From the NCBI GenBank assembly GCA_964016885.1, contig OZ024745.1, positions 11,346,001 through 11,410,000 on the forward strand: a stretch of 64,000 nucleotides of DNA, in the 5' to 3' direction. Position 1 is the stretch's first letter, and every line of letters starts with the position of its first letter. Source of the stretch: Eledone cirrhosa. Its lineage: Eukaryota. Below are positions 8,951 to 64,000 of the stretch, piece by piece. The position numbers were made by a program, and so were the translations under genes. The notes beneath the pieces are model-generated. The model saw only the letters and a program-made list of their open reading frames with translations. It was not told the DNA's origin and did not search any database.

Positions 8951-9104
8951 AGTAAGTTATTTTTTAGTAAGTTATTTTTTAGGAACTATATATATATAAA
9001 TACTATGTATAGGTCTGATCTTACTATTCACACACTAATATCACTCATACACATCACTTGGCTTTGCTTGCTTGTGTGTGGCATTGTTTTTACGAGAGAG
9101 CAAG

Positions 9105-12100: not shown

Positions 12101-14575
12101 TCTAGTGATGGCGTCACCTTCTTGTCTATTGATGGAGTCACCTTGAGGTCTAGTGATGGGCTTAGCTTGTGGTCTAGTGATAGGGTCACCCTGAGGTCTA
12201 GTGATGGGATCACCTTGATGTCTAATGATGGGGTCACCTTGAGGCCTAGTGATGGGATCACCTTGAGGTCTAGCGATGGAACCACCTTGAGATCTAGTGA
12301 TGGGGTCACCTTGAGGTCTAGTGATGGGGTCACATTGAGGTCTTGTGATGCGTTCACCTTGAGGTCCAGTGATGGAGTCACATTGAGGGCTAGTGATGGA
12401 CTTGACGTCTAGTGATGGGGTCCCCTTGCAGTTTAGTGGTGGGGTGACCTTGAGGCCTATAGATGGGGTCACCTCGAGGTCTAGTGATGGGATCACATTG
12501 AGGTCTAGTGATGGACTTGATGTCTAGTGATGGGGTCACCTTGAGGTCGAGTGATGGAACCACCTTGAGGCCTACTGATGGGGTCACATTGAGGTCTAGT
12601 GATGGGGTCACCTTGAGGTTTATTGATGGAGTCACATTGAGGTTTAGTGATGGGGCCACATTGAGGTCTAATGATGGGGTCACCTTGAGGTCTATTGATG
12701 AGGTCACCTTGAGGTCTAGTGATGGGGTTACCTTGGCGTATATTGATTGGGTCACCTTGAGGTCTAGTGATGGAACCACCTTGAGGTCTAGTGATGGACT
12801 TGATGTGTAGTGATAGGGTCACATTGAGGTCTAGTGATGGGTCACATTGAGGTCTAGTGATGGAGTCACCTTGAGGTCTAATGATGGGGTTATATTGAGG
12901 CCTATTCATGGTGTGACCTTGAGGTCTAGTGATGGGGTCACCTTAAGGTCTAGTGATGGGGTCACCTTAAGGTCTACTGATGGGGTCACATTGACGTCTA
13001 GTGATGGAGTCACGTTGAGGCCTGCTGTTGGGGTCACCTTGAGATCTAGTGATGGGGTCAGCTTGAGGTCTAGTGATGGGGGTCACCTTGAAGTCTAGTG
13101 ATGGGGTCACCTTTAGGTCGAGTGATGGAGTCACTTTGAGATCTAATGATGGGGTCACCTTGAGGTCTAATGATGGGGTCATATTGAGGTCTTGTGATGC
13201 GTTCACCTTGTGGTCTAGTGATGGGGTCACATTGAGATCTAGTGATGGACTTGAGGTTCAGTGATGGGGTCACCTTGAGGTTTAGTGGTGGGGTCACCTT
13301 GAGGCCTATAGATGGGGTCACCTTGAGATCTAGTGATCGGGTCACCATGAAGTCTAGTGATGGAACCACCTTGAGGCCTACTGATGGAGTCACATTGAGG
13401 TCTAGTGATGGGGTTACCTTGAGATTCAGTGGTGGGGTCACTTGAGTTCTAGTGATTGTGTGACCTTGAGGTCTAGTGATGGGGTCACACTGACGTCTAG
13501 TGATGGACTTGAGGTCTAGTGATGGGTTCACCTTGAGGTCTAGTGATGGGGTCACATTGAGGTCTAGTGATGGGGGTCACTTTGACGTTTAGTGGTGGGG
13601 TCACCTTGAGGTCTAGCGATGGAGTCACCTTGAGTTTTATTGATGGGTTCACATTGAGGTTAAGTGATGGGGCCACATTGAGGTCTAGTGATGGACTTGA
13701 GGTGTAGTGATATGGTCACATTGAGTTCTAGTGATGGGGTCACATTGAGTTCTAGTGATGGAGTCACGTTGAGGTTTAGTGGTGGGTGTCACTTTGAGGT
13801 CTAGTGATGGAGTCACCTTTTGATCTATTGATGGAGTCACCTTGAGGTCTAGTGATGGTTTCACATTGAGGTCTAGTGATGAACTTGAGGTCTAGTGATG
13901 GGGTCACCTTGAAGTCTAGTGATGGAACCACCTTGAGGCCTTCTGATGAGGTCACATTGAGGTCTAGTGATGGGGTCACTTTGACGTTTAGTGGTGGGGT
14001 CACCTTGAGGTCTAGCGATGGGGTCACCTTGAGGTTTATTGATGGGGTCACATTGAGGTTTAGTGATGGGGCCACATTGAGGTCTAGTCATGGGGTCACC
14101 TTGAGGTCTAGTGATGGGGTTACCTTGACGTATATTGATTGGGTCACCTTGAAGTCTAATGATGGAACCACCTTGAGATCTAGTGCTGGACTTGAGGTGT
14201 AGTGATAGGGTCACATTGAGGTCTAGTGATGGAGTCACGTTGAGGCCTGCTGATGGGGTCACCTTGAGATCTAGTGATGGGGTCACCGTGATGTCTAGTG
14301 ATGGGATCACCTTGAAGTCTAGTGATGGGGTCACCTTCAGGTCTAGTGATGCAGCCACCTCGAGGTCTAGTGATGGAGTCACCTTGAGGTCTAGTGATGG
14401 GGTCACCTTGAGGTCTAGTGATGGGGTCACCTCGAGGTCTAGTGGTGGAGTCACTTTGAATTCTAGTGATGTGGTCACCTTGAGGTCTAGTGATGGGGTC
14501 ACCTTGACGTCTAGTGAGGGTGTCACATTGAGACCTACTGATGGGGCTTCATTGAGGTCGATGGGGCCATCTTAA
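9105..14575. repeat. 5.5-kb minisatellite, 24-bp unit (GTCACCTTGAGGTCTAGTGATGGG) with 19-bp deletion variants
   Basis: Directly visible; gives short SSDGVTLR/TPSLDLKV ORFs with constant frameshifts. Confidence 0.95.
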
Positions 14576-19228: not shown

Positions 19229-21890
19229 GAACTCCAAATTACACCAGTTGAAACAACAACTCACAGCTACAACAGAAAGACTAAAATATAAGTCAACAGC
19301 ACATAAACGACAAGTGCTAAATAGATTGTTTGCCAGAGATCCTAAATCAGTTTATCGCAGCTTCGGTGGCAAAAGCTCAATCTCTGTAAATGACACCCCT
19401 TCAAAAGAACAGGTTGAGAGCTACTGGAGATCTGTATGGGAAACGGATGACGGATTCAACAGACAAGCTAATTGGCTAAAAGAACTGGAACAGGACTACT
19501 GCCAACATGTCCAGACAAAACAATATGACATAGATGGGTCAATACTGGAAACAGCTCTACAGAAAATGTCGAATAGGAAATCGCCAGGCCCAGACCTCAT
19601 TACAGGATACTGGTTGAAGAATTTCACTTTCTATCGGCAAGATCTCATACGGCTGTTTACAGAAACCATTAAGGGCACACAAGAACTGCCCAGATGGTTA
19701 TCAACTGCCTCTACTCTCCTCATTCCCAAAAATAGCCAAACCACCCTTGCTAAAAATTACCGCCCAATTGCCTGCCAAAACATCATGTATAAATTATATA
19801 CTGGGTGCCTTAACCTGTTCTTACAGGATCACTGTGCTACCAACAACATCATAACACCTGAGCAAGCTGGTGGAAAGAGGGAGGTGTGGGGTTGCATAGA
19901 TCACCTACTAACTAACAAAATGATTCAGGAAAAAACAACAAAGAATCGCAGAAACATGACTGTCGTGTGGCTGGACTATCAAAAAGCATTTGATAGTGTA
20001 CCTCATGGGTGGATTGTTAAGGCTTTACAGTTAGCTAAAGTCCCACAACCATTGGTAGCTGCTGTTGAACGCCTGACCAAGAACTGGTACACCAGTTTGA
20101 TCCTTAGAGGTGAGAAGGAGCAGGTTAAGACTGATAAGATACATTACCAGTAGGGCATCTTTCAGGGTGATAGCTTGTCAGTGCTACTCTTCGTTCTCTC
20201 ACTGAATCCACTATCTTACCTACTCAGGAAACAAGGTCGACAAAGAAGTGGGACCAGAAGTATCTCCCATCTTTTCTTTGTTGATGACCTGAAGTTGTAT
20301 GGGCCAAATATCAATGACATCAAGAAACAATTGGACCTCATTACACAATTTTCAACCGACATCAAAATGAAATTTGGTGAGTCCAAGTGTGCATATTTGG
20401 CAGTAAAACGTGGAAGAGCTGTGCCCTCCTCTAGAAATCTAGAGATGAACGGCCTGACAATACAACCTCTGCAGTCAGGTGACAACTACAGATATCTTGG
20501 ACAGGATGAGAATGTCAGATATGATGGACCCATAAATAAGGAGAGAACCAGAACTGAATACCTCAGAAGAGTAAAGAAAATATGGTCATCAGAACTGTCA
20601 GCATACAACAAATACATTGCCCACAATACTTATGCTGTGCCAATTCTAACGCCAACATTTGGCCTACTGAACTGGTCATTGCAAGAACTAAGTGAGATGG
20701 ATGTTAGAACTCGAAAACTTCTCAGTGTTACTGGGAACTTTAACATCAATGGTGATGTGGATAGGCTATACTTCTCACGCAAGGAAGGTGGCCGGGGTCT
20801 AAAATCAATATTAACAACATATCAGACCCGGATAGTGACACTGAAGCAACACCTTCAACAGAGGAAAAAGGTTGGCAACCATCTTGCCCAGGTTTATGAC
20901 CATGAAAAAAGAAATATCATTAGAATAGCGACTGATCTGGAGGAGAGATATGGAATAAAGCCCGATATAAATCTCTCACCCAGAGAAATCGGAAGATCCT
21001 ATTCAATGTTCAAACAAGAAAAAAAAATTGACCAATTTACAGAAAAAGTTGTGCATGGATACTTGAGGCGTAAAACACAGACCATAGAGGGGATAAACCA
21101 CTCAAAAAGCCTGGCATGGAGTTCCGACAAGTTTATGACATCACACCTTGAGGGATATCTCTATGCAATACAGGAACAAGAACTCCCTACCAAATATCTG
21201 CTGCACAAAAGAGGAGGGCCAGCAGCTGACAATAAATGTAGGCTATGTAAAACAAAGATCGAGGATGTAAGCCACATTGTTGCCAGCTGCGAAAGAATGT
21301 CATCTCGCTACTACCTCCCCATGAGACACGATGGGATAGCTAGAACCATCTGGAACGCACTTCGGAAAACAAAATCAACAACAAACGAGGAAGAATATAT
21401 TGAGACAGATGGCACTAAGGAATACTGGTGGAACCTGAAAATAAAAACTGCCACCAAATTAAAGCACAACCGGCCTGATATTGTAGTTTGGGACCACACA
21501 TTGAAAACGTGTTCTGTTGTGGAGATCAGCTGCCCACTTGATGTAAACGTTGTCAGAAAAATACAGGAGAAGGAGGACATCTACGGACCATTGATGAGGA
21601 GTTTACAAATCCAGTATCCAAGATACACCTTTAGCTTCATACCCATCATTATTGGTGCTACGGGTTATATACCAACCCGCTTGGACCAAAGTATGACTGA
21701 ACTTGGATTTGCGGACAAAAAGCGCAGCTCCCTAATTCATAGTCTACAAATGGCTGCGATAGCTGGCACCTTCAAAATTTGCAAAACATTCTTGCGATTC
21801 AAGGGATGACAATTTCTTTTCTTTTACAACCTTGCCACCAGGAAGGTGGCCGGTCAAAAAATATACTCAAAATTAAGAGAAAGAGAAAAC
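19229..21890 (+). mobile_element. 5'-truncated R4/Dong-like non-LTR retrotransposon (RT + CCHC + restriction-like endonuclease)
   Basis: ORFs 19248-20153 and 20175-21809 are one frame broken by a single TAG; motifs KSPGPD, NYRPIAC, LDYQKAFD, GIFQGDSLS, FVDDLK, CRLC..HIVASC, RHD, RPDIVVWD..VEISCP; flanked by (TACA)n and (TA)n. Confidence 0.92.
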
Positions 21891-21907: not shown

Positions 21908-24897
21908 TGCAAAAGTTTTATTTAAATTGTTGGGATATAACAAGCAAATATTTTTATAACTAATATAAAGCACTCGACAAATATTTGGACTAGATATACG
22001 ATATTAATAAATGGAAACTATATTTATCAAACCATATTTATTTCATTATATATATTTCAAGGATACCAAGTTACATTATGGTATGCCTTCATCAGACAAA
22101 ATACAATATATAACAGTTTTATAAATAGACATTGACGTACCCCTTTTAAAAATTGACCGTTGTTTTTGGAGGCCATCAGGATAGTGATTTGTTTACTTTA
22201 GTAAGTCATAGTGTTAAGAGTAAGTAAAAAGATGGAGAGAGAGAGAGAAACGTGGAGAAAAGAAAGGGAAAGATAGATAAAGAAAAAGAAGAAAACAAAA
22301 AGAAAAGAGAACAGAGGAAAAATAACGGGGAGATATCAAACCATCAGACAGAGAAAAAAAATCCAGAGAAAGATATATAGAGATAGAGAGAGGGGGGAGA
22401 GAACGAAAGCCTTAAGTTATGTCATATTAAGTTGAGTTAACAATTGGGATGAAAAGCATAAATAAAATTAGAAATAGTAATATTCATGAATGGAATATAG
22501 ATATATAATATGAGAAATTACACATTGTTTAATTATAATTAAATATTTAGTTTAAAATTGAAATCAATATATTAAAAATTGGAATTTAAACATTATAAAA
22601 TATATATATTGCTAGAGAGATTATCTATCGCATATTACATACACATAGGCAAAGGTACATAAATATATATATATACACGCTCACTCAGAAAATACACATT
22701 ATATCTACTCCCGCACATAATATATATATACAAAGCATAAGTGATTTTTTGCCATACATTCCCTGTGTTATTAATTAAAAATTGAAAGTTTTTAGTATAT
22801 ATATATAAATATATAGGATTAACGTTCATGCATTTATGGCTGTTAAGTTATGCATATCTGCAATCAAAAACTGCATGTGTAAGCCTGTACATTCACATCC
22901 ATAATTCTTAGCTATGCATGAATAGATATGTGTGTACATCTTCAATTGGTATACACGCGTCACTCATGCATATATACAGACAGACATATAATCACAAAAA
23001 AAGCATATAACACATGTATATGTATGTCAACACACACATATAGATACATTAGCCGTATATAGATATAATCAACATATAACATAGTACAATTGAGTATATA
23101 AAATACAAAAGGATTATATTTTGGAAATATAATTATATCAATATAACTTAAAAAACAAACGAATTCTACAAATATCAAAATACTAAAATATCCCAAACTA
23201 TTATAGAATATTTTAAGTTAAAATAATATGTTTAATATATTTAGTATAGAAATTAATCTTACGTATATTTTAATCAAGATATTGAAAGGACAAACTTTTG
23301 AAAATTATGAGAAGCTATCAAAATAAAAAATAAATCTAATAAAAATTATGAGAAGCTATCAGAATAAAAACAAATCTAATAAAAATAAAAAATAAAATGA
23401 ATCTAATAAAAAAAATAAAATGAATCTAATAAAAAATAAAAAATAAATAAAATGAATCTAATAAAAAATAAATCTAATAAAAAATAAAATATTATATCAA
23501 TATAACTTAAAAAACAAGGATTCTACAGATATCAAAATATTAAATTGTTTAAAAATAAAAATAAAAAATAAAGAAATTTAAAAAAATTAAAAAAATTTTT
23601 TTTTAAATTTCAAAAATTTTTTTAAAATCTTTAAAATTTCAAAAATGTTTAAAAATTTTAAAAAATTTTAAAAACTCTTAAAATATTATAGAATATTTTA
23701 AGCTAAAATAATATGTTTAGTATAGAAATTTATCTTACGTATATTTTATTCAAGATATTGAAAGGATAAACTTTTCTAGAATAGTTTATTATATTTATAA
23801 TTATATTTATGAAGAAAATTTATACTTGGGTACTTAACCAAAGAAAATGAAAAAGGTGAAGGAATCTAATGATTTATCGCCAGGTTAGATATATTAACTA
23901 AATTACTTAATTAATTAAACTACATTTTAAATTTATATTTATATTTAAACGTTGAGTTCAATCTATGTCTGCGGCAACTGAATAAATTATTCCTTAAATT
24001 AAGGGAATTTTTGGTCTTTAATATAAAAAATATTTCCTCTATACAAAGGTCACAATTTTCTGAAGAGGAATTAAAAGGAGTAGCTTGTGAAATAATATTC
24101 CAAATCAGCGAATATTCAACATTATCTCGTTTTAGGTCCCATAATAGGCTAGATAGCGAAGTTGAAGATTTTTTGTTTGGATCTGTAAAAGAATTTTTAT
24201 GATTATTGAAGCGGGATTTAAATTCTGTAGAGGTAGAACCGACATAGTTAAATGAATTTAAATTAGTTTTAACATTACAATTATAAACTACATTTTTAGC
24301 TAAGCAGTTGTTATTTAATGGACAGTTGGATTTATTTCTACAGTTACAGTTATTCGATTGAATATTGCTTGGGTTATTATTGGTATTTGGTTAGGTTTTA
24401 AATTTCTATTATTAATTCTATTAATATTTTGCGCTAAATTTTTGGTGGAAGAGTAGGTTAATTTTATAGTATGTCTATTAAAAATTGAGTAATATTTATG
24501 TGTTCTAGGGAATCGTTTGTCAAGAGCTTTAAAGAATAGTTTAGCAATAGGGGTTTTAATATTTAGTGAGAAAGGGGGAGCGAACCATAATATATTCCTA
24601 GTTCTATTTCTTTTTCGGCTTTCGGAGTTATAGTAATATTTTCTATTATGGTTGTTGAAATTGTTACCATAATTAAACTTGTTATTATTTTGGTTATTTT
24701 GTATATTATTATTATTATCGATGTATTTAATTTTATTTCTATACCCAGCTCTACCTAACGCTTCATTGTAATAATGCGCTTTTTCATCAAATATATTCTT
24801 ATTAGATGAAATTCTTGAAATTCGTTTTTGAACAGAGTATTTTTAACGGATCTGGGGTGATTAGAGTTAAAATTGACATAATTTAAGTTCTCATTTA
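21908..24897 (-). mobile_element. 5'-truncated Penelope-like element (RT thumb, linker, GIY-YIG remnant at 23920-24897, long 3' region with HHR)
   Basis: Minus strand reads LNENLNYVNFNSNHPRSVKNT, WFAPPFS, CNCRNKSNCPLNNNC, VVY..YVGSTSTEFK, CDLC, CRHR; homologous to 62211-63808; ends in (TA)n. Confidence 0.88.
22041..22101 (-). ncRNA. Type-I hammerhead in PLE 3' end (pseudo-LTR)
   Basis: TTTTGT-CTGATGA-AGGCATACCA..TGGTATCCTT-GAAA-TATATA-TA-ATGAAA. Confidence 0.8.
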
Positions 24898-26898: not shown

Positions 26899-27316
26899 AA
26901 TATATGAACGATCGTCTGGTTGTGGAACCAACCAACCAACCGGAAATTTATAAATTCTTAAATTTATAAATTTAATTTATAATAAATTGAAGTGAAAGCA
27001 ACTGGTGCGTGTGTTTCATATTGGCAACAATATATATATAAATATATATATAAATATATATATATAAATCTGGATGGATTCAGTTTAAAACCGGTTAGAC
27101 CATTAGTCACCAGATTACTCGATACTTGGGCAGTAGAATATGGTTATACACTAAAGATTCGGGACCCCGACGGCCGAGGTCTTGCCGTTTCAACAGCTAG
27201 TTCCAGACTCTGAAACTAGCTATAAACTAGTATATACATATATTAAGAAGAACGAAGTTTCGTTTGTGTATCGAGTATTCATATTAGTACCACCACAGTA
27301 ATTCAGTGAATCACAT

Positions 27317-27392
<76 letters not shown>

Positions 27393-27436
27393 GTAAAATA
27401 AGAAAATTATAAAATTAACTAACTTACTAAAATATC

Positions 27437-27518
27437 ACTTCCAACTAATTAGTTTCTGGAATGGAGTAAATATATTTTCCGAAGAAGATATGGAGAAACA
27501 TTCCGTCGTCAGGGAAGT
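27437..27518 (-). ncRNA. Type-I hammerhead (inverted monomer)
   Basis: Reverse complement of 28165-28246. Confidence 0.85.
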
Positions 27519-28164
27519 CTATTCTCAGCTAAGTTTCCAGGCAAAGCGAGGACTCTGGAAACTTATTAAAAAAATAATTCAGTGGATAGGAAATAGCAAA
27601 GCGTGGACTGAATTCCTAGCCATTGAGAAAATCACTGCCTCTGCGTCTGTGGCAAATTCAAAAAGAATCAATCACGTGACATCGAGGTCAATCAGTGGAA
27701 AGTGGTTTGCTAATAAAACAGCGGCCTGCCTACTACCATAGCAGCAGTCATGGCCAATATTGCTCGACAAATAATTTGGAGATAATAATAAAGAATTCAT
27801 ATCTAGTAACATATATATACATACAGATGCATATCAATGCTAGCATTGATATGCATCTGTATGTATATATATGTTACTAGATATTAATTCTTTATAATTA
27901 TCTCCAAATTATTTGTCGAGCAATATTGGCCATGACTGCTGCTATGGTAGTAGGCAGGCCGCTGTTTTATTAGCAAACCACTTTCCACTGATTGACCTCG
28001 ATGTCACGTGATTGATTCTTTTTGAATTTGCCACAGACGCAGAGGCAGTGATTTTCTCAATGGCTAGGAATTCAGTCCACGCTTTGCTATTTCCTATCCA
28101 CTGAATTATTTTTTTAATAAGTTTCCAGAGTCCTCGCTTTGCCTGGAAACTTAGCTGAGAATAG

Positions 28165-28246
28165 ACTTCCCTGACGACGGAATGTTTCTCCATATCTTCT
28201 TCGGAAAATATATTTACTCCATTCCAGAAACTAATTAGTTGGAAGT
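28165..28246 (+). ncRNA. Type-I hammerhead, first of 11 (others start 28688, 29211, 29734, 30257, 30780, 31303, 31826, 32351, 32874, 33399)
   Basis: ACTTCC-CTGACGA-c-GGAATG..ATATCTTC TTCG GAAAATAT..CATTCC-a-GAAA-CTAATTAG-TT-GGAAGT; 6-bp stem I, palindromic stem III, GUU site after 28240. Confidence 0.88.
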
Positions 28247-31200
28247 GATATTTTAGTAAGTTAGTTAATTTTATAATTTTCTTATTTTACGTCTCTCATA
28301 TTATTGTTCTGCAACCCCATGCATTGAACCACAATGTTACTAAGACAAAACCTATATATTTGCTAGCATTGATATGCATCTGTATGTATATATATGTTAC
28401 TAGATATTAATTCTTTATAATTATCTCCAAATTATTTGTCGAGCAATATTGGCCATGACTGCTGCTGTGGTAGTAGGCAGGCCGCTGTCTTATTAGCAAA
28501 CCACTTTCCACTGATTGACCTCGATGTCACGTGATTGATTCTTTTTGAATTTGCCACAGACGCAGAGGCAGTGATTTTCTCAATGGCTAGGAATTCAGTC
28601 CACGCTTTGCTATTTCCTATCCACTGAATTATTTTTTTAATAAGTTTCCAGAGTCCTCGCTTTGCCTGGAAACTTAGCTGAGAATAGACTTCCCTGACGA
28701 CGGAATGTTTCTCCATATCTTCTTCGGAAAATATATTTACTCCATTCCAGAAACTAATTAGTTGGAAGTGATATTTTAGTAAGTTAGTTAATTTTATAAT
28801 TTTCTTATTTTACGTCTCTCATATTATTGTTCTGCAACCCCATGCATTGAACCACAATGTTACTAAGACAAAACCTATATATTTGCTAGCATTGATATGC
28901 ATCTGTATGTATATATATGTTACTAGATATTAATTCTTTATAATTATCTCCAAATTATTTGTCGAGCAATATTGGCCATGACTGCTGCTATGGTAGTAGG
29001 CAGGCCGCTGTCTTATTAGCAAACCACTTTCCACTGATTGACCTCGATGTCACGTGATTGATTCTTTTTGAATTTGCCACAGACGCAGAGGCAGTGATTT
29101 TCTCAATGGCTAGGAATTCAGTCCACGCTTTGCTATTTCCTATCCACTGAATTATTTTTTTAATAAGTTTCCAGAGTCCTCGCTTTGCCTGGAAACTTAG
29201 CTGAGAATAGACTTCCCTGACGACGGAATGTTTCTCCATATCTTCTTCGGAAAATATATTTACTCCATTCCAGAAACTAATTAGTTGGAAGTGATATTTT
29301 AGTAAGTTAGTTAATTTTATAATTTTCTTATTTTACGTCTCTCATATTATTGTTCTGCAACCCCATGCATTGAACCACCATGTTACTAAGACAAAACCTA
29401 TATATTTGCTAGCATTGATATGCATCTGTATGTATATATATGTTACTAGATATTAATTCTTTATAATTATCTCCAAATTATTTGTCGAGCAATATTGGCC
29501 ATGACTGCTGCTATGGTAGTAGGCAGGCCGCTGTCGTATTAGCAAACCACTTTCCACTGATTGACCTCGATGTCACGTGATTGATTCTTTTTGAATTTGC
29601 CACAGACGCAGAGGCAGTGATTTTCTCAATGGCTAGGAATTCAGTCCACGCTTTGCTATTTCCTATCCACTGAATTATTTTTTTAATAAGTTTCCAGAGT
29701 CCTCGCTTTGCCTGGAAACTTAGCTGAGAATAGACTTCCCTGACGACGGAATGTTTCTCCATATCTTCTTCGGAAAATATATTTACTCCATTCCAGAAAC
29801 TAATTAGTTGGAAGTGATATTTTAGTAAGTTAGTTAATTTTATAATTTTCTTATTTTACGTCTCTCATATTATTGTTCTGCAACCCCATGCATTGAACCA
29901 CAATGTTACTAAGACAAAACCTATATATTTGCTAGCATTGATATGCATCTGTATGTATATATATGTTACTAGATATTAATTCTTCATAATTATCTCCAAA
30001 TTATTTGTCGAGCAATATTGGCCATGACTGCTGCTATGGTAGTAGGCAGGCCGCTGTCGTATTAGCAAACCACTTTCCACTGATTGACCTCGATGTCACG
30101 TAATTGATTCTTTTTGAATTTGCCACAGACGCAGAGGCAGTGATTTTCTCAATGGCTAGGAATTCAGTCCACGCTTTGCTATTTCCTATCCACTGAATTA
30201 TTTTTTTAATAAGTTTCCAGAGTCCTCGCTTTGCCTGGAAACTTAGCTGAGAATAGACTTCCCTGACGACGGAATGTTTCTCCATATCTTCTTCGGAAAA
30301 TATATTTACTCCATTCCAGAAACTAATTAGTTGGAAGTGATATTTTAGTAAGTTAGTTAATTTTATAATTTTCTTATTTTACGTCTCTCATATTATTGTT
30401 CTGCAACCCCATGCATTGAACCACAATGTTACTAAGACAAAACCTATATATTTGCTAGCATTGATATGCATCTGTATGTATATATATGTTACTAGATATT
30501 AATTCTTTATAATTATCTCCAAATTATTTGTCGAGCAATATTGGCCATGACTGCTGCTATGGTAGTAGGCAGGCCGCTGTCTTATTAGCAAACCACTTTC
30601 CACTGATTGACCTCGATGTCACGTGATTGATTCTTTTTGAATTTGCCACAGACGCAGAGGCAGTGATTTTCTCAATGGCTAGGAATTCAGTCCACGCTTT
30701 GCTATTTCCTATCCACTGAATTATTTTTTTAATAAGTTTCCAGAGTCCTCGCTTTGTCTGGAAACTTAGCTGAGAATAGACTTCCCTGACGACGGAATGT
30801 TTCTCCATATCTTCTTCGGAAAATATATTTACTCCATTCCAGAAACTAATTAGTTGGAAGTGATATTTTAGTAAGTTAGTTAATTTTATAATTTTCTTAT
30901 TTTACGTCTCTCATATTATTGTTCTGCAACCCCATGCATTGAACCACAATGTTACTAAGACAAAACCTATATATTTGCTAGCATTGATATGCATCTGTAT
31001 GTATATATATGTTACTAGATATTAATTCTTTATAATTATCTCCAAATTATTTGTCGAGCAATATTGGCCATGACTGCTGCTATGGTAGTAGGCAGGCCGC
31101 TGTCTTATTAGCAAACCACTTTCCACTGATTGACCTCGATGTCACGTGATTGATTCTTTTTGAATTTGCCACAGACGCAGAGGCAGTGATTTTCTCAATG

Positions 31201-34200
31201 GCTAGGAATTCAGTCCACGCTTTGCTATTTCCTATCCACTGAATTATTTTTTTAATAAGTTTCCAGAGTCCTCGCTTTGCCTGGAAACTTAGCTGAGAAT
31301 AGACTTCCCTGACGACGGAATGTTTCTCCATATCTTCTTCGGAAAATATATTTACTCCATTCCAGAAACTAATTAGTTGGAAGTGATATTTTAGTAAGTT
31401 AGTTAATTTTATAATTTTCTTATTTTACGTCTCTCATATTATTGTTCTGCAACCCCATGCATTGAACCACCATGTTACTAAGACAAAACCTATATATTTG
31501 CTAGCATTGATATGCATCTGTATGTATATATATGTTACTAGATATTAATTCTTTATAATTATCTCCAAATTATTTGTCGAGCAATATTGGCCATGACTGC
31601 TGCTATGGTAGTAGGCAGGCCGCTGTCGTATTAGCAAACCACTTTCCACTGATTGACCTCGATGTCACGTGATTGATTCTTTTTGAATTTGCCACAGACG
31701 CAGAGGCAGTGATTTTCTCAATGGCTAGGAATTCAGTCCACGCTTTGCTATTTCCTATCCACTGAATTATTTTTTTAATAAGTTTCCAGAGTCCTCGCTT
31801 TGCCTGGAAACTTAGCTGAGAATAGACTTCCCTGACGACGGAATGTTTCTCCATATCTTCTTCGGAAAATATATTTACTCCATTCCAGAAACTAATTAGT
31901 TGGAAGTGATATTTTAGTAAGTTAGTTAATTTTATAATTTTCTTATTTTACGTCTCTCATATTATTGTTCTGCAACCCCATGCATTGAACCACAATGTTA
32001 CTAAGACAAAACCTATATATTTGCTAGCATTGATATGCATCTGTATGTATATATATATGTTACTAGATATTAATTCTTTATAATTATCTCCAAATTATTT
32101 GTCGAGCAATATTGGCCATGACTGCTGCTATGGTAGTAGGCAGGCCGCTGTCTTATTAGCAAACCACTTTCCACTGATTGACCTCGATGTCACGTGATTG
32201 ATTCTTTTTGAATTTGCCACAGACGCAGAGGCAGTGATTTTCTCAATGGCTAGGAATTCAGTCCACGCTTTGCTATTTCCTATCCACTGAATTATTTTTT
32301 TAATAAGTTTCCAGAGTCCTCGCTTTGCCTGGAAACTTAGCTGAGAATAGACTTCCCTGACGACGGAATGTTTCTCCATATCTTCTTCGGAAAATATATT
32401 TACTCCATTCCAGAAACTAATTAGTTGGAAGTGATATTTTAGTAAGTTAGTTAATTTTATAATTTTCTTATTTTACGTCTCTCATATTATTGTTCTGCAA
32501 CCCCATGCATTGAACCACAATGTTACTAAGACAAAACCTATATATTTGCTAGCATTGATATGCATCTGTATGTATATATATGTTACTAGATATTAATTCT
32601 TTATAATTATCTCCAAATTATTTGTCGAGCAATATTGGCCATGACTGCTGCTATGGTAGTAGGCAGGCCGCTGTCTTATTAGCAAACCACTTTCCACTGA
32701 TTGACCTCGATGTCACGTGATTGATTCTTTTTGAATTTGCCACAGACGCAGAGGCAGTGATTTTCTCAATGGCTAGGAATTCAGTCCACGCTTTGCTATT
32801 TCCTATCCACTGAATTATTTTTTTAATAAGTTTCCAGAGTCCTCGCTTTGCCTGGAAACTTAACTGAGAATAGACTTCCCTGACGACGGAATGTTTCTCC
32901 ATATCTTCTTCGGAAAATATATTTACTCCATTCCAGAAACTAATTAGTTGGAAGTGATATTTTAGTAAGTTAGTTAATTTTATAATTTTCTTATTTTACG
33001 TCTCTCATATTATTGTTCTGCAACCCCATGCATTGAACCACAATGTTACTAAGACAAAACCTATATATTTGCTAGCATTGATATGCATCTGTATGTATAT
33101 ATATATGTTACTAGATATTAATTCTTTATAATTATCTCCAAATTATTTGTCGAGCAATATTGGCCATGACTGCTGCTATGGTAGTAGGCAGGCCGCTGTC
33201 TTATTAGCAAACCACTTTCCACTGATTGACCTCGATGTCACGTGATTGATTCTTTTTGAATTTGCCACAGACGCAGAGGCAGTGATTTTCTCAATGGCTA
33301 GGAATTCAGTCCACGCTTTGCTATTTCCTATCCACTGAATTATTTTTTTAATAAGTTTCCAGAGTCCTCGCTTTGCCTGGAAACTTAGCTGAGAATAGAC
33401 TTCCCTGACGACGGAATGTTTCTCCATATCTTCTTCGGAAAATATATTTACTCCATTCCAGAAACTAAATAGTTGGAAGTGATATTTTAGTAAGTAAGTT
33501 AATTTTATAATTTTCTTATTTTACGTCTCTCATATTATTGTTCTGCAACCCCATGCATTGAAACACAATGTTACTAAGACAAAACCTATATATTTGCTAG
33601 CATTGATATGCATCTGTATGTATATATATGTTACTAGATATTAATTCTTTATATATATATATATATATATATACATGTTCTATGGTGCAACACAAATATA
33701 CACAAATTTGCATACCTTTTGATGTCTATAGATATAAACGTGCCGACACACACACATACATATACGCACACATGCATTGCACACTGATGGGCACATACAT
33801 ATTTGTACACAAGTATTCCAATACGGCAGGGCCTAATGGATTCCCCTGGCAGTACGTACAATCTGAACACACTGACACACATCTTGGTGTTATGCCAATA
33901 CTATATATCATTTCACACCTTTTATTATTAATATTTTTGATGTTCTCTTGAGAGAATCGTTTTTGCTGAAAATATCGAATAATGTACACCACTTTTACCA
34001 GTATCACAAAAATACTGGTCCCCCCCCACACATACACACATATACACACACACATATATACACACACACACATACACCGCGTACACTAACATACAAAGAG
34101 ACATATATACACACACACTTCTCCGTATAAGACAAGAGCTGAAAAATATCTTTCAACATGTTAAAATATCCCCCACACACTTACAGACACATTCCTACTG

Positions 34201-38807: not shown

Positions 38808-40791
38808 ATGGCTAATTCCCCTCTGCACGAAGCAGCTGAAAGCCTTCCTCACAAAATAACACCTCACACCGACACCACCATTGTAAATGTTACTACGTTT
38901 GCCAACACAAAAAAAATATAAGCAGTAGCAATATTTTAAATTTGTCTCAGGCAGACATTCATTTCCCGCCATTACCAATGACTGCAGGTGTTAAAGCCTC
39001 CACCACCACCACCACCGGGACAACCACCACCCCCACCACCACCGCGACAACAGAAACAAAAGAAGAAAAAAATAAATTAACTCGTGATGTCGAAATGAAA
39101 TCAAGCAAAATGGACTCTTCCGCACCAAAGACGACTGACGTCACCACCACCACAACTGAAACTAAAATTAATATTAACACAAATAACGATAGCAACAACA
39201 ACAACAATGACATTATAAAACCGACCCTCAGTTTCGCCATAGTAGCAAAACAGTTCGAAGCATTCACGGTAACTCAAGAGGATTTAGAAAATGCCAAACA
39301 AATGGTAAAGAAAGATGGGTACAGGGTCAGCCTCACCCCCCACCTAATAAAATGGAGCATCGGCGCCTATGCACCGTGTCGTATAGAACAATAAATGTAA
39401 AATCGCGCCGAGTGGAACGGGCATCCGAGTCCCAAATCCAAAAAGCTTTGGGACATGTGTGGGCAAGAAAAACCCACATCAGACGTGGGCAAAAGTATGG
39501 AACCGTGGATGTGTTCTTTGAAACACCAGAGGAGGCTAGATAACACTCCATGGCCCCATTAAAAAGTGACGACTTCACACTCGTCCCAAGCTATTGTGGC
39601 CAGAGACTCGTAAAGGGTGACCCACGTTCCACCGGCCATCGAAATTCCCTGGCTAATAGCGGCTGTCCTCGCCGGCATCGAAGCCAACACGAAAATAATA
39701 GCAATAGCAAAAGAAAAGCAGGAAAACTGGTCCGGATCTGGGATGGAGCTCCTGATCCAAGCGGACCAAAAAAGCATTGAGGAGATCCCAGAGGTAATAG
39801 ACCTCACTGACGGCAGCCACCTCACGGTAATTGTCGAGGGCAGAAGACCTAGGTGTGTCGTTTGTGGTGAAGGAACCCACCTAAGGGCTTTCTGCCCTCA
39901 GGCTAAAAGGTTGAGGCCACCTCTCCTACCCACCCCAGTGACACAACCATCAACACCACCAGTAGCAGAGATGGCAGCAACAACTGTAGCAGCAACAACA
40001 GAAGCAACTATAACAGCAACAACCCCAGCAACAGTAGCAAAACCAACACCACTATCACCACCAGCAAAACCAACACCACCACCACCCAACGCTTCAGAAC
40101 TAGCACCAGCGCCTACACCATCCACCACACCACAGCCAAAACTAACGGCTGTGGAGGATTTTCCACTCCCCGGCCTATCACAACTGGAGACAGATTGTGA
40201 CGACAAGGAGTGGGAAACGATATCCGGAAAAAAAAAAGAAACCAAAAAAGAAAAAATTCTCTTCCTTCCCCCTCCAAAAACAAAATACAGAGGGAAACAA
40301 ATAAACTAAGAAACAAAAAAGTTAGGACAGATATGCCACCATCCACACCAGCATCAACCCCATCAACCCAAACACCAACACCATCACCATCATTAACTCC
40401 AACACCACCATCACCTACACCACAAAAGTCACCAAAATGCGAAACAGAAACAAACCCACAACAAACGCAAACAAAACAAAACAACCAAAACGATACACAC
40501 TACACAGCATTAAATTTGAACAACAAGCAATTATTACACTACATCCAACACAACACCAGCATCACAGAAAAAGACTACACAACAACCCCAAAATTCACAC
40601 CACCTCCACACATACAAATCACTCGCATCACACAGAAAACGTACATGACACTAAAACAAAAATTCCCCAAAGACATCGGAGACTTCCGACAAGCACTCTC
40701 CAGGAGGATTTATAAGGACATCCTTCCTGAGGAGGCCACAAGCAGTGAAAAGGATGGAAAAACCGTCCTTCCCCTACGAGAAGTAAGGTAA
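38808..40791 (+). pseudogene. Tx1-like ORF1 (gag-like; zinc knuckle; T/P-rich), frameshifted
   Basis: Pieces 38942-39394, 39352-39543 (YGTVDVFF), 39617-40309 (RPRCVVCGEGTHLRAFC, a CCHC knuckle) and 40210-40791; start position approximate. Confidence 0.75.
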
Positions 40792-40825
40792 GTGGTCTTT
40801 CCCATCTTTTCCACTCATTTTCAAC

Positions 40826-43800
40826 ATGACCTCACTCAGAATAGGCAGCATAAATGCGCGTGGCTTGGGGTCGTCATGGAAGCAGGGCCACCTGCTCAAC
40901 GACCTCAGGTCACTAAACATAGATGTAGTGGCCATCAGCGAGACCAGAATCTCCGAAGCACAGGCTTTCGCACCGATCTTCGGCGGCTACGATGTGTACG
41001 CATCTCCCAGCCGTCCGGGATCGGGGGGAGGAGTTGCTGTGCTTTTTCGGAGAGGTTTGGATCTTGCCATACGGGCCATCTTCCTGGACCCAGAAGGTAA
41101 GTTGGTGGTGCTGGACGTGACCAGCGGAGACGGCCAAGCTTTCAGGTTAGTGGCCGTCTATGCCCCGACAGGAGCAGGGCGGCCTGATTTCTTCCGGCGT
41201 CTGGAGACCTTTCTTGGAACGTCCCGCTCTTTAGTGTTAGTGGGCGACTGGAACGGGATCTTAGATGCACGCTGGGATTGTGTGGGATTAGTGGATAGGG
41301 AAGGAGGGTGCAAGAGTCTCACCAACCTGCTCAGACGTTTTGAACTGTCTGACAGGTACCGAATGGATTTCCCGAATGTACCAATGTAGACTTGGACAAA
41401 TCGCATAGGGTCATCCAGATCATATCTAGATAGAGTATTTTGTAGGGAAATAGATAGGTCTAGCATAGGCTGTCCACAATTCAAGATAGTCAGCTACACG
41501 GACCACAAATTCGTGATCTGTGTGCTTGACTTAGATAGGCTTCATAGACGAGGACCCGGCTACTGGAAGCTAAACGCGTCCTTACCAGCGCGCAAGGCCT
41601 ACAGAGACCGGATTAGCGAACTAGTTAAGCGGGCGTTGACGGGGGCCATCGTCAACAACAAGTGGTGGTTTGCTCTGAAAAGAGCAATTAGAATAGAGTC
41701 CATTAGGTTTAGTAAGACTTTAGCAATAGAGAAAAATAGAGCAGAGGGAGAATTAGTTAGAAAATTAGATGAGGCGCTTAGCAAAGGCATCGCGACCGAC
41801 GTACTTGCTGCGAAATTGGCCCTTGACCAATTCTTCAATGCAAAGCACGAAGGCTGCGTTGTCAGAGCTAGGGTGCGTGCTCTCAGACACGAGGGAACGA
41901 AAGCCGTTCAATGGGCCCGAGTGGCGGAGGCGCGTCGTGGCAACAAAGCCACGATCCGGTCTTTGGTGGACCACGACGGGCGCATGCTACTCGATCCCGG
42001 GCAAATGTGTGAAGCTTTTCAGCGACACTTCGCTCAACTGTTCGGGGGCAGTGGCGGGCCGGATCGAGGGATGGACTTTAGTGTCTACCTCGACGGACTG
42101 CCGCGGCTTTCGGCCACTGAGGCGGAGTGTTGCGAAAAGCCGATAACAACCGCTGAAGTACGGGATGCAATGACTAGTTGCACAAGGGGTAAATCGCCTG
42201 GTTTAGATGGTCTGCCCTATGAACTTTACGTACAATTGCCAAACTTGTTCGGAGGCCTCTTGGCGGACGTCTACTGCAACTGGCAACAGAACGGGAGAAT
42301 TCCCAGCTCTGTGAGCCGAGGAGCGGTGGCGCTGCTGAGAAAGGATCCGAATAAGGGGGATAACATAGATAATTTTAGGCCCATAACTCTGCTAAACACA
42401 GAGTTCAAGATTTTGGCCAAGGTGCTAGCAAAGAGGTTGGCGCTTGTCGTTGGTGGTCTGGTGGGAGAGGCACAGACATGCGCCATTCCCGACAGATCCA
42501 TTCACGACAACCTCCACCTCATGCGATACATCGTAGAGAGGGTAGCTAGGGAACCTGGCACGGGTGGGTCTTTGATCAATTTAGATCAGTCGAAAGCCTT
42601 CGATAGGGTCGACCATCGTTACCTAGCGGCAGTCCTGAGGGCGGCTGGCTTTGGGCCCGTCTTCAGAGGCTGGATCGCTGCCATGCACAGCGACATCTGC
42701 TCTGTAGTGAGAGTGAACGGTCACCTTTCGGAACCGTTCAACATCATGCCTCGGTCCGCCAAGGATGTCCCCTCTCGTCCCTATTGTACGTATTGACTCT
42801 CGAGCCATTACTGCACAAACTGGAGACGTTGAGGGGGATCCCGCGCGAACTAGGATGCGGAAGATCCGTGTCAGCATATGCGGACGATGTCACCGTAGTG
42901 GTGTCGAACGCCAAACACATCGAGGCGATCGGCACTACACTAAGAGAATACGAAGCGATGACAGGAGCAATGATCAACCAGGAAAAGTCAGTGGGCCTGC
43001 AGCTCGGCACCTGGAGAGGCAGGTCCATGCCGTCCAACAGCGTCGTCGGGCGCTGGACGGACGGACCGGTTAAATTGCTAGGGGTCTGGTTCGGTCCAAA
43101 CCTCCAGACGGACAAAAACTGGGACGAGGTGACGAGCAGGGTGGCTTCTCTCACCCAGAAATGGGCCGAGAGGAAGCTATCCCTGAAAGGTCGAGCGGAG
43201 GTGGTTAACGCGTACATCGCGTCCGTCATCTACTACCGCCTGACCGTCGTACCTTGTCCTAAGCCCCGCCTGACTGCGCTGGAGCGTTTGCTCTTTCGCT
43301 TTTTGTGGAAGGGACGCGCTCCGATGGTCAGGCGGTCCATCTGCTGTCAACACCCGCTACGTGGAGGGCTGGGCATGCCGTGGCTGATGATGCGCAGACA
43401 CGCGCTCAGGCTACGACATCTCCACCTCTTCCTCGACGGTGATCAGGTGTGGTTGCCGTTTGCTAGACACGTTTTTCCCCAGCTCGTCTCCTTGACGGAG
43501 CTGCAGTCCTGGGTCAAGCGAAGACCGAGAGGGAGCGCTTGGAGACTGGAATGTCTTCAGGCGCTCACAGCCCTCGACCAATCGGGCAATGTGATCGGTG
43601 GAAACTCCACCTTGGCGTTCTATAGGGGATTAGTGGAGGGGAAGAGCGACGACGTACTTGGAGAAACTCTAGGCGTCGATGAAAATCAACTAGCCAATCT
43701 CTTCGGAAGGACTTTCGGGCCGGGGCCTATGGACAACTTCCAGAAATCCCTGGCCTGGCAGTGCTACAGCGGTGCTTTGCCAGTTCGGGATAAACTTTAC

Positions 43801-44244
43801 AGGCATGGAGGTGCCGTCAGCCGGGCATGTCCGAGATGCGCACAGGGCGACGAAACCGTCCTGCACGCACTCGTCCAGTGTCCGAGCATTGCTGACTTGT
43901 GGGTTTATGTCGAACACCTGCTGTCACGTGTAGGACGGATCCAGCTATCAGCTGAGTTCATCGTGAGGATTGCCCCGCCCCCTTCCTTTAGTCGGGAAGG
44001 GCAGGCAGTTTTTATCTGTCTGGTGGCCATGGCGAAAGAGATAGTATGGTGGACACGTTTGAAAGGGCTGAATACGGGCACTTACCTCTTCGGTGAGGCC
44101 CTGATTAACTTTTTCAAATTTCATTTGAAAAGGAAAATCAGGGTAGAGAGGGAAGTGCTCTTTTCCCAGCATTTTGTTGAAAGATGGGTGAGAGAAGCAA
44201 GTATGGCCCGAATGAATGGGCCTTCTCTGAGTATGTGTCTGTAA
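40826..44244 (+). pseudogene. Tx1-like ORF2 (APE endonuclease, RT, C-terminal Zn finger), stop at 41387 and frameshift at ~42750
   Basis: SINARGL, ISET, VYAP, GDWN, SYLD, DHK, YWKLN, KSPGLDG, FRPITLLN, DQSKAFD, RQGCPLS, YADD, CPRC..HALVQC. Confidence 0.93.
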
Positions 44245-60375: not shown

Positions 60376-60418
<43 letters not shown>

Positions 60419-60421
<3 letters not shown>

Positions 60422-61460
60422 AAAGTTATATTAAATTGTTGGGTTACAACTAGTAAATATTAATAACTGATATAAAAGCACTCGACAAGTATTTGGAGTA
60501 TATTTACGATATTAAATAAATGGAAACTATATTTATAAAACCATATCTATTTCATTATATATATTTCAGGGATATCATATTAACAATATGCTATGCCTTC
60601 CTCAGACAAAATACAATATAAACAGTTTTATAGATAAATAGATTTGACATACCGTACAACATCGACTTGTATTTGAAAAGTTGAATTGGCAGTGAAAAAA
60701 TTGTAAACAGAAAGAAAGAAAGAGAGAAAAAAAGAAAGACAGAAAACGAAGAAAAAGAAGAAAAAGAAGAAATGCATGGAACAAAATAGAGAGATGGAAA
60801 GATAGATAAAGAGAAGAACTTCATGTAAAGAAACAGAGAGAGATATATATAGAGAGAGGAAATAGATAGAGATAGATATATATATATAGAAAAATATGTA
60901 GTTGGACATCCGTTGAGTAAACGTATCAATGATACATTTATTTATTTATTTATTTATTTAGCTCTAGTATTAATGTAATGGAGATATATGTGGTTAGGAG
61001 AGAAACCAGCTGTTATATAGAGAGAAAAATGAAAAGTAACCAGACATAGGCGAGGCATAAACACCCTATGTTTTAATGTAGAAGTATTAATATGTATAAA
61101 AACCAGGCACTATATTGAAAATATCAGTATTCCTGAATGAGACACGTATCCATAATGTGTGAAAAGTAATGATCTTATGTTTAGTTTTAAAAAATTCATA
61201 TGTTTATATGATAACTACAAACATCGATGTGAATTCACATGATCAACTCTGCAAACCCTAAGTTCACACGGAAAACATTCTCATTGTGCTATAAAAATTT
61301 AAGTATAAACATATGTGTATATATATACACATATATATATAGAGTCTATATTACTACTATTCTTGTCTTTACTCTACAAGATTATCTATCAAGCAGAAAT
61401 AGAGAGCAGATTTCAATATATCAATAAAAAATATATCAGAAACAAAAACCAAAAAACAAC

Positions 61461-61493
<33 letters not shown>

Positions 61494-62210
61494 ATAATAA
61501 AATATTACGAAAAAAATATTACATATTAAAAATATTACATATTAAAAATAAAAATATTAGAAAATACTACAATAATAAAAAATAAAAAAAATAAAAATAA
61601 ACCACAAAGATCAACCCTTCAAAATTAATTGACAATATATTGCCAAGTTCATTATAAGCATCAGAGTCGAAAACAGATAAAGCTAAAAATTATTTATCAA
61701 ATCGCATCTAGCAAAAATCATTTCAAAAAGTTTAGGATGCCCATTTGGTCTACATGTGTTCTTATATTTAATATAGAAGTTTATCTAGTGTAACGTTTAT
61801 TCGAAATATTTGGAGCATCAACTTTTAGGGTAGTTTAATTTTCCATGAAGAATGTTTAAATAAAAATACAAAGAAGAATAAAAAGAAGAAATCGAAAGAT
61901 TTATCGGCTAGTTTCCCAAATAATTATAAATCAAACTAAATATACTACATTTTAAATTTAAATTTATATTTAAAAGTTGAGTTTAATCTATGTTTGCAGC
62001 AACTGAATAAATTTGTCCGTAGATTAAGGGAATTTTTAGATTTTAGTATAAAGAATATCTCCTCTGCGCAGAGGTCACATGTCCCAGAGGATGAATTAAA
62101 AGGAATCCCTCTTGAGACTATATTCCAAGCCGTCGAATATCTAACGTTATCTAGCTTAAGTTGCCAGAGTACGCCTGATAGTGCCGTTGAAGATTTTTTG
62201 CTTGGATCTG
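60419..62210 (-). mobile_element. Inverted copy of the PLE 3' portion (GIY-YIG C-terminus, 3' region, HHR)
   Basis: ~61753-62210 is the reverse complement of ~63543-64000; left terminus is homologous to 21908 and abuts (TA)n. Confidence 0.9.
60550..60611 (-). ncRNA. Type-I hammerhead in PLE 3' end
   Basis: TTTTGT-CTGAGGA-AGGCATAGCATATT gtt AATATGATATCCCT-GAAA-TATATA-TA-ATGAAA. Confidence 0.78.
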
Positions 62211-63808
62211 GGCAAATTAAGCAAACACATTCTTGACAGGGTGATACAGCAAATTAAGAACTTGGATTGTTTATCTAACCTGAGCTTGTGGGAGGGAACT
62301 GGAGAGGTTGTTGAGTGGTTTAAGAAAATTAAATATAACAATAATAATAAGTTTATTCAACTTGATATTGCTAACTATTATTCTTCTATTACCTCTAATC
62401 TACTAAATAAGGCACTAAATTACGCATTCAAACATACAGACCTAACTAGCAATGAAATGCATATTATATTATCGGCTAGGAAAACATTGATAGAATTTAA
62501 TGACCAACTATGGACCAGAGCAGATAGAGATAGCAATTTTGACATTACTATGGGATCATCCGACTCAGCTCAGGTAACTGACCTTGTGGGCTTATTTTTA
62601 ATCAATTCGCTACATAGGAAAATACCTGGTATTACCGGAGGTTTATATAGAGATGACATGCTTTTACTTATTGATAATAATAACTCTGAACTAAATAGAA
62701 AATGTAAACAAATTACACAATTTTTTAATTACTTTAATCTTAAAATAGAAATTGAGAACAACCATAGAATAGTCAATTTCCTAGATATAACATTAAATCT
62801 CAACACATGTCTTCACTATCCTTTTCACAAGTTGAATGAAAACTTAAACTATGTCAGCTTTAACTCTAACCACCCCAGATCTGTCAAAAACACTATAGTA
62901 AACTCTGTTCAAAAACGTATCTCTAGAATCTCGTCTAACAGAAATATTTTCGACGAAAAAGCCCAGTACTACAATGAAGCGTTAGCTAGAGCAGGATATA
63001 CTGATAAGATTATGTACATAGATAATGATAGACAAACTAAACAAAATAACAACTATTTTAATTACGGCAACAACCTTAACAACTATAATAGAAAGCATTA
63101 CAATAATTCCAAGGGCCAAAAAAGTAATAGAACTAGGAACATAATTTGGTTTGCCCCCCCCCCTTTCTCACTAAACATTAAAACCCACATCGCTAAACTA
63201 TTTTTAAAGCTCTTGATAATCGCTTCCCTAGAACACATAGGTATCACTCAATTTTCAATAGACATACTATAAAATTAACCTACTCATCCACCAAAAGTTT
63301 AGCACAAAATATTAATAGAATAAATAATAGGAACTTAAAACCTAGTGATAATAGCATAAATAATATACAAGTTAACAAATGTAACTGTAGAGATAGATCT
63401 AAATGTCCGTTAAATAACAACTGCTTAGTTAAAAATATAGTATAAAATTGTAATGTTAAAACTGATTCTAATTCTTTTAACTACGTCGGTTCCACATCGA
63501 CGGAATTTAAACTTCGCTATAATAACCACAAGAATTCTTTCACAGATCCAAGCAAAAAATCTTCAACGGCACTATCAGGCGTACTCTGGCAACTTAAGCT
63601 AGATAACGTTAGATATTCGACGGCTTGGAATATAGTCTCAAGAGGGATTCCTTTTAATTCATCCTCTGGGACATGTGACCTCTGCGCAGAGGAGATATTC
63701 TTTATACTAAAATCTAAAAATTCCCTTAATCTACGGACAAATTTATTCAGTTGCTGCAAACATAGATTAAACTCAACTTTTAAATATAAATTTAAATTTA
63801 AAATGTAG
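62211..63808 (+). pseudogene. Penelope-like (Hydra-clade-like) RT + C-terminal GIY-YIG endonuclease, 5'-truncated; frameshift ~63205 and premature TAA ~63443; element runs past window end
   Basis: FIQLDIANYYSSI, FDITMGSSDSAQV, LYRDD, VNFLDITL, SNHP, WFAPPPF; then CNCRDRSKCPLNNNC, IV*..YVGSTSTEFKLRYNNHK, CDLCAEE, LN..CCKH. Confidence 0.92.
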
Positions 63809-64000
63809 TATATTTAGTTTGATTTATAATTATTTGGGAAACTAGCCGATAAATCTTTCGATTTCTTCTTTTTATTCTTCTTTGTATTTTTATTTAAACA
63901 TTCTTCATGGAAAATTAAACTACCCTAAAAGTTGATGCTCCAAATATTTCGAATAAACGTTACACTAGATAAACTTCTATATTAAATATAAGAACACATG

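Follow-up and report, generated by a model that had tools for sequence, protein, structure and literature searches.

The array in the window

The DNA analysed here, hereafter the window, is a stretch of 64,000 nucleotides from Eledone cirrhosa (assembly GCA_964016885.1, contig OZ024745.1, positions 11,346,001 to 11,410,000 of the forward strand); coordinates below count from its first letter. At 27384-33649 it carries a whole insertion, bounded by two (TA)n tracts and made of tandem copies of a unit with a hammerhead ribozyme motif. The array is a non-LTR (long terminal repeat) retrozyme, i.e. a non-autonomous Penelope-like element (PLE), and thus of a known class; an earlier note on this DNA had taken it for a candidate new element, which overstated its novelty, non-LTR retrozymes having been described already. 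The interpretation we favour is that the array is one insertion of a dispersed protein-less hammerhead repeat, likely copied in trans by Hydra-like PLEs, probably from self-cut circular RNA. The parts of the insertion are listed here, start sites A and B being the two fixed positions at which its arms end.

27320..27383, no strand: left (TA)n target microsatellite (TRF 27320-27385; junction read)
27384..27841, minus strand: inverted arm, about 460 bp, with a 12th hammerhead (27437-27518); its outer end is start site A (BLAST, 98.9% to unit)
27838..27845, no strand: head-to-head junction, whose centre is a self-complementary 8-mer of the unit (sequence and alignment)
27842..33649, plus strand: direct arm of 11 units and a partial 12th; its outer end is start site B (alignment, end mapping)
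28165..28246, plus strand: type I hammerhead of unit 1, recurring every 523/525 bp (alignment, folding, covariation)
28292..28328, plus strand: start site A (after 28299) and bulged hairpin A (28307-28328) (end mapping, folding)
28300..28415, plus strand: 116-nt 'tail' separating the two fixed ends (end mapping)
28406..28443, plus strand: start site B (after 28415) and bulged hairpin B (28425-28443) (near-identity to a Hydra-like PLE hairpin)
28502..28518, plus strand: segment lying roughly half a unit away from the cut; it is predicted to bridge the cleavage junction by pairing, as a ribozyme lock or ligation splint (folding; missed by the consensus fold)
33650..33673, no strand: right (TA)n target microsatellite (sequence)

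Self-alignment resolves 27840 to 33596 into 11 head-to-tail units, nine of 523 bp and two of 525 bp (all had been put at 523 bp), followed by the partial 12th unit, which reaches about 33649-33653. The units differ from one another in 0-8 columns, bearing out the near-identity first reported, and their GC content is 35-36%. The claim of (TA)n on both flanks holds on the right; on the left, what adjoins 27842 is the inverted 460-bp copy, and (TA)n follows beyond its end at 27384. This arm differs from unit 1 at three positions, and its outer end, of class A, adjoins TA. Most of the information on mechanism comes from two features that the earlier note overlooked, the inverted arm and the pair of fixed ends. 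The note was right that the unit has no reverse transcriptase (RT) frame: in 28300-29500 no stop-free frame exceeds 125 codons, and the one of that length, which is antisense, was rejected as a coding remnant (open for at least 90 codons in 5 of 189 copies).

Variants within the array recur with a period of four (unit 3 equals unit 7, and unit 4 unit 8) and a private base is common to the inverted arm and unit 1 only; local duplication, conversion or assembly error has therefore affected the array. Besides retro-insertion, the 11-mer was probably reshaped after insertion by local duplication or conversion.

The hammerhead of unit 1 comprises stem I (28165-70/28241-46, 6 bp), the core at 28171-77, an extra C at 28178, stem II (28179-84/28220-25, 6 bp) with an inner hairpin, an extra A at 28226, and a palindromic 4-bp stem III (28230-39) leading to a GUU triplet with a predicted cut after 28240. 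The CTGACGA and GAAAC halves are spaced at 523/525 bp in 11 of 11 units, and the cuts proposed earlier at 28240, 28763 ... 33474 are rightly placed. Every unit had been called intact, which is true of the core (11 of 11); stem III is intact in 10 of 11, one substitution in unit 11 disrupting its palindrome. Nor is the motif canonical: stem II does not abut A9 and G12 directly, as in canonical type I hammerheads, but is set off by one extra base on each side. Rfam reported no hammerhead in the array, either at the gathering score or at E<=10, and similar hammerhead families are maybe under-counted because Rfam misses such a variant. The microRNA matches that Rfam did return were rejected, being the palindromic junction.

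A dispersed family and its insertion ends

The full hammerhead motif occurs 10,049 times in the genome searched (3.0 Gb in 1,796 contigs), a count that allows any pyrimidine/purine at the two extra positions and for which the reversed-pattern control gave 0. The dispersed copies that the earlier note had asked for thus exist, at many loci. The extra C after A9 and extra A before G12 are found in 9,886 of the 10,049. Three diverged copies (L198, L199 and L200) lack this pair, two carrying A/C and one A/T; they are possibly the oldest lineage of the family. Their extra bases resemble those of the Hydra-like PLE hammerhead.

A 19-mer of the array's own subfamily has 2,557 exact genomic matches. 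Among 2,260 candidates the best 40 match the unit at 94-100% identity over most of its length, and many family loci are 97-99% identical; older subfamilies descend to about 75% identity, with unit lengths of 519-571 bp. The retrozyme family is real, lately amplified and long-lived. Most loci hold 1-2 units, although multi-unit arms of up to 11 and of at least 15 units occur. One older array of at least 15 units (L106, G000:C1:94664000-94673999), with mosaic common variants, extends beyond the stretch examined.

The conserved core (CUGANGA / GAAA / UH) and the three stems of a type I hammerhead are present in the family. Stem II is 98.7% paired in 26 copies spanning subfamilies, compared with 35-49% in slid controls; two of its six pairs are changed on both sides, and one position shows four pair types. 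Relatedness by itself can lift sequences above a shuffle control, structured or not, so the argument leans on the slid control and the pair types. Core positions vary at 1.8% versus 4.2% overall (19% at the free position 7), the 3' half of this count being biased, with 20 loci chosen by exact stem III match. In the consensus fold, covarying double changes affect 15 of 111 pairs, spread along the unit. Since stem II covaries and the core varies little, comparison of copies indicates that the hammerhead RNA fold is under selection; cleavage itself is predicted. The element is of retrozyme type, as the earlier note had it.

The family's insertions have the traits of PLE insertions: an inverted 5'-truncated arm, a one-sided tail and a (TA)n target. 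Among 60 loci mapped, none with an LTR layout, 88 of 99 arm ends lie at site A or B and adjoin TA (90 of 99 adjoin TA whatever their class). Site A is 59 nt past the predicted cut and site B 116 nt further. Thirty-two of these loci are head-to-head with both ends classed, the other 28 being single arms or having an unclassed or extra segment. Thirty-one of the 32 pair one A end with one B end, and one is B+B; the A+B excess has a probability of ~1e-8 if sites are chosen independently, when half would be expected to match. Reading by eye of further loci, mostly of older subfamilies, gave 10 A+B, none alike and two unassigned. A stricter regular-expression tally on 88 loci gave 20 A+B and one B+B; it overlooked many ends and serves as a cross-check only. 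Fold-back synthesis is disfavoured as the general source of inverted arms, because the arms start at unrelated positions and either can be longer; for the array in the window itself it may still have operated.

Template and likely helper

The inner ends of the arms are scattered. A pile-up at the cut was looked for and none was seen (2 of 97 near the cut, within 395-405); a cut linear monomer is therefore not the usual template. Since cDNAs cross the cut site freely, the template is a circle or an uncut multimer RNA. Of 34 monomers folded as circles (a duplicate of the window sequence having been dropped), 25 have the base just past the cut pairing best with the opposite segment, while six favour stem I and three other partners. 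In every subfamily folded, this junction-spanning segment lies roughly half a unit length along, and where stem I differs by an indel between subfamilies the segment changes with it.

We think it rather unlikely that circles are superfluous, i.e. that the same non-autonomous PLE passenger, with the same start sites, is copied from an uncut linear read-through transcript of tandem copies while its hammerhead trims 5' ends or is inhibited by the lock. Arms crossing the cut site fit uncut RNA equally well, the units of one locus can carry mosaic variants, and an anole PLE inserts from unprocessed RNA, with no RNA-seq read ending at its cut (PMC11167929; statements on published work refer throughout to the accessible portions of the sources). 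Such a template accounts less readily for multi-unit arms of 11 or more in a family with 1-2 units at most loci, for a junction-spanning segment conserved at half the unit, and for covarying stems along the entire unit.

As to the enzyme, the array was likely copied in trans by the genome's Hydra-like PLEs, two of which lie in the window.

60414..64000, plus strand: candidate helper, a Hydra-like PLE insertion (locus L218) with RT frame 62160-63272 (frames, end mapping)
23920..24842, minus strand: broken 3' fragment of a related Hydra-like PLE, from thumb to GIY-YIG (frames, comparison)

The inverted arm of the first ends at its own site B, in TA at about 60420, and the insertion extends past the window to site A. 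The three PLE frames went unrecognised by Pfam. The helper family has 56,989 first-look candidates, many with open 745-aa frames, and measures ~3.9 kb from pseudo-LTR (pLTR) to pLTR (locus L201). It encodes RWR (in place of RWK), DKT, CxCX5C, CxxC and CxH motifs with a C-terminal GIY-YIG domain, carries its own hammerhead and targets (TA)n. The best named homologues of the Penelope protein are from Argonauta hians. Assignment to the clade is by motifs rather than by a tree, and the sampling covers three subfamilies. The base of stem II in its hammerhead is likewise weak or mismatched in part of 132 copies. In one subfamily (L128, L131, L134 and related loci) the 3' untranslated region contains a second hammerhead-like core, which precedes the hammerhead of the pLTR. 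The family's fragments number in the tens of thousands, an abundance far beyond the 'small number of families' reported for the clade (PMC8557442).

Like the unit, the helper has two fixed ends, 89 nt apart, and 20 loci, most of them chosen because one end was already visible, comprise 17 A+B, one B+B and two unassigned. In both elements each of the two start sites is followed, 7-9 nt on, by a hairpin, and all four hairpins are built alike: a 3-bp lower stem, a 2-nt 3' bulge, a short upper stem and a variable loop. The loops vary among the four while the stems are kept, and hairpin B of the unit equals the first PLE hairpin at 8+8 bases. The common hairpin pattern has 21,927 genome matches against 56 in a control. 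Hairpin and layout are all that the unit and the sampled PLEs have in common; because they share so little else, sequence comparison suggests that the unit is not a simple deletion product of those PLEs. The earlier proposal that PLEs reverse-transcribe the unit in trans is partly supported, by the insertion signature (31 of 32 A+B, TA targets); the PLE with this unit as its pLTR that had been suggested as a check was not found among the loci scored (the best 111-150 of tens of thousands of candidates).

Mobilisation by another enzyme, whether of another PLE clade or a long interspersed nuclear element (LINE), with the Hydra-like resemblance arising by convergence on an AT-rich target, would fit the missing long homology with a Hydra-like pLTR; other PLE-like frames are common in the genome, and three Hydra-like subfamilies are a limited sample. 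We nevertheless give it little credence, given the 8+8-base identity of hairpin B at the same distance from the end, the A+B rule and target common to both elements, and the fixed internal 3' ends and one-sided tail, which are features of PLEs and not of LINEs. That the array is a dead pLTR fragment locally amplified as a satellite, the single-locus case the earlier note had set against itself, is scarcely credible: the period-4 variants and the private base of the inverted arm and unit 1 fit it, but the ~10,000 dispersed motifs, the many loci 97-99% identical, the compensatory changes between subfamilies and the match of both array ends to the family's fixed ends refute it for the family and leave it only a contribution to array length.

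Several points count against copying by Hydra-like PLEs from a self-cut circle. On the helper side, long homology between unit and PLE is weak (alignment score 57 versus 38.8 +/- 6.2, equalled by 4 of 300 shuffles), 70 PLE loci contained no unit-like sequence apart from adjacent copies of the retrozyme family, and hairpin B has a low probability (about 0.15) in the circle fold. On the ribozyme side, in a linear context stems I and II form with a probability of only ~0.25, cleavage may be slowed by the GUU triplet and by the A inserted before G12, the core-conservation count has the bias given above, and eight of nine predicted Xenopus retrozymes showed no cleavage in vitro (bioRxiv 10.64898/2026.07.22.740005). 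The main substrate of the anole PLE is uncut RNA (PMC11167929). The lock duplex is open to linear multimers too, it does only modestly better than shuffles (1-32 of 200 reach its level), and the consensus fold lacks it. Finally, units within other young loci diverge by 2.3-2.6%, compared with 2.6% between loci; being no more alike within a locus, they do not demonstrate templating by a single circle.

The window holds further repeats. Immediately left of the array, 27068-27320 is a separate TA-flanked repeat with 3,334 first-look candidates, the best others being 83-88% identical over about 150 bp; its left end is fixed, and inside it lies a hairpin or inverted arm. Non-LTR retrotransposon RT frames with Pfam RVT_1 matches lie at 19230-21809 (plus strand), 40787-44244 (plus) and 7035-8956 (minus), which we take to resemble the restriction-like-endonuclease, L1/Tx1 and RTE types. 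Two minisatellites, of 9.5 kb with an 18-bp period (49570-59077, with stop-free frames over 3,000 codons) and of 5.4 kb with a 24-bp period (9106-14546), are probably simple repeats.

Proposed cycle and known systems

In the cycle we propose, read-through RNA would be cut by the hammerhead, possibly as a dimer via the palindromic stem III, into monomers of 520-570 nt, which would be ligated to circles in which the opposite segment locks the ribozyme. A PLE protein, probably a dimer, would bind hairpins A and B, nick both (TA)n strands and prime one cDNA from each site; each cDNA would extend a random distance through the cut site, sometimes for several rounds, before its inner end is joined to that of the other. 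The A+B rule would follow if a dimer held both hairpins and primed one cDNA per strand.

More tentatively, and with somewhat more doubt than confidence, we suggest that a viroid-like circular RNA parasite of Hydra PLEs here reveals how PLEs integrate in general: a dimer would read two bulged hairpins on one RNA and make one cDNA per nicked strand, giving inverted arms and a one-sided tail, while a new hammerhead variant, with bases inserted on both sides of stem II, would be held off by an antipodal lock. The accessible literature leaves open what mobilises animal retrozymes and how PLEs make inverted arms and a one-sided tail. The insertion signature suggests which clade provides the helper and yields a cis-signal that can be tested. 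A direct in vitro test could draw on a short RNA, its two mapped start sites, a hairpin of 19-22 nt and a candidate helper whose 745-aa frames are intact.

Metazoan non-LTR retrozymes resemble the present family: they are AT-rich tandem repeats that encode no protein, carry a type I hammerhead in every unit and occur as monomers to multimers. Cleavage and circles have been shown for them in coral, mussel and axolotl, with PLEs proposed as helpers (PMC7229834), and they have been argued to be non-autonomous PLE derivatives in a survey of 35 genomes from vertebrates, insects and a coral (bioRxiv 10.64898/2026.07.22.740005); mobilisation by PLEs is proposed for both. Units of 520-570 bp compare with 150-450 bp in the former source and 51-972 bp in the latter, and the earlier note's view of a monomer longer than is typical was overstated. 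The stem II base is mismatched in axolotl HHR_Amex2 too, yet that ribozyme cleaves, and most metazoan circles are predicted to leave the ribozyme free (PMC7229834), whereas a lock is predicted here. The head-to-head arms, fixed start sites and common cis-signal are unreported in the accessible parts of these accounts. Our literature search found no cephalopod retrozyme, common start-site hairpin or extra-A hammerhead, though Repbase, subscription journals and supplements might contain any of them; the accessible main text of PMC13282606 has none of the words 'ribozyme', 'retrozyme' and 'hydra'.

Inverted arms and a one-sided tail are established PLE traits (PMC8557442, PMC3846280). For the anole PLE a dimer has been predicted; its RT initiates at two sites inside the RNA, the stretch between them forming the tail, and the two strands of the target are each nicked and extended (PMC11167929). 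The family shares with these insertions the inverted 5'-truncated arm, one-ended tail, AT-rich targets and two internal RT starts. It differs in being non-coding and in its tail of 116 nt (89 nt in the local PLE) compared with the known 30-40 bp; the strict pairing of one site per arm and the bulged hairpin after each site are unreported in the accessible parts of those sources. The helper matches Hydra clade PLEs in its RWK-like, DKT, CxCX5C, CxxC and CxH motifs, hammerhead and (TA)n targets, but its unit of about 3.9 kb exceeds the size general in the clade, under 3 kb; the accessible account of that clade mentions no non-autonomous Hydra retrozyme (PMC8557442). Chlamydomonas, too, has non-autonomous PLEs. 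Those of the Chlamys type, MRC1 among them, likewise form head-to-tail insertions, but most Chlamys elements lack hammerheads (PMC8557442).

The ribozyme has the marks of PLE-type hammerheads (PMC4209133), namely an extra base between 9 and 10.1, a long helix II, a G10.1-C11.1 pair and a palindromic helix III. It differs from them in a second inserted base, an A between C11.1 and G12, in a stem II lengthened by an inner hairpin, in a stem III of 4 bp and in its invariant GUU triplet. The pDo500 repeat of Dolichopoda has, judging by its name, a unit of about 500 bp. It too is a hammerhead satellite with compensatory changes, but in the accessible text it is described as a satellite without a mobilisation signature (PMC2837043). 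Against this background, what is new here is a named likely helper clade, a common start-site signal and the rule of one site per arm.
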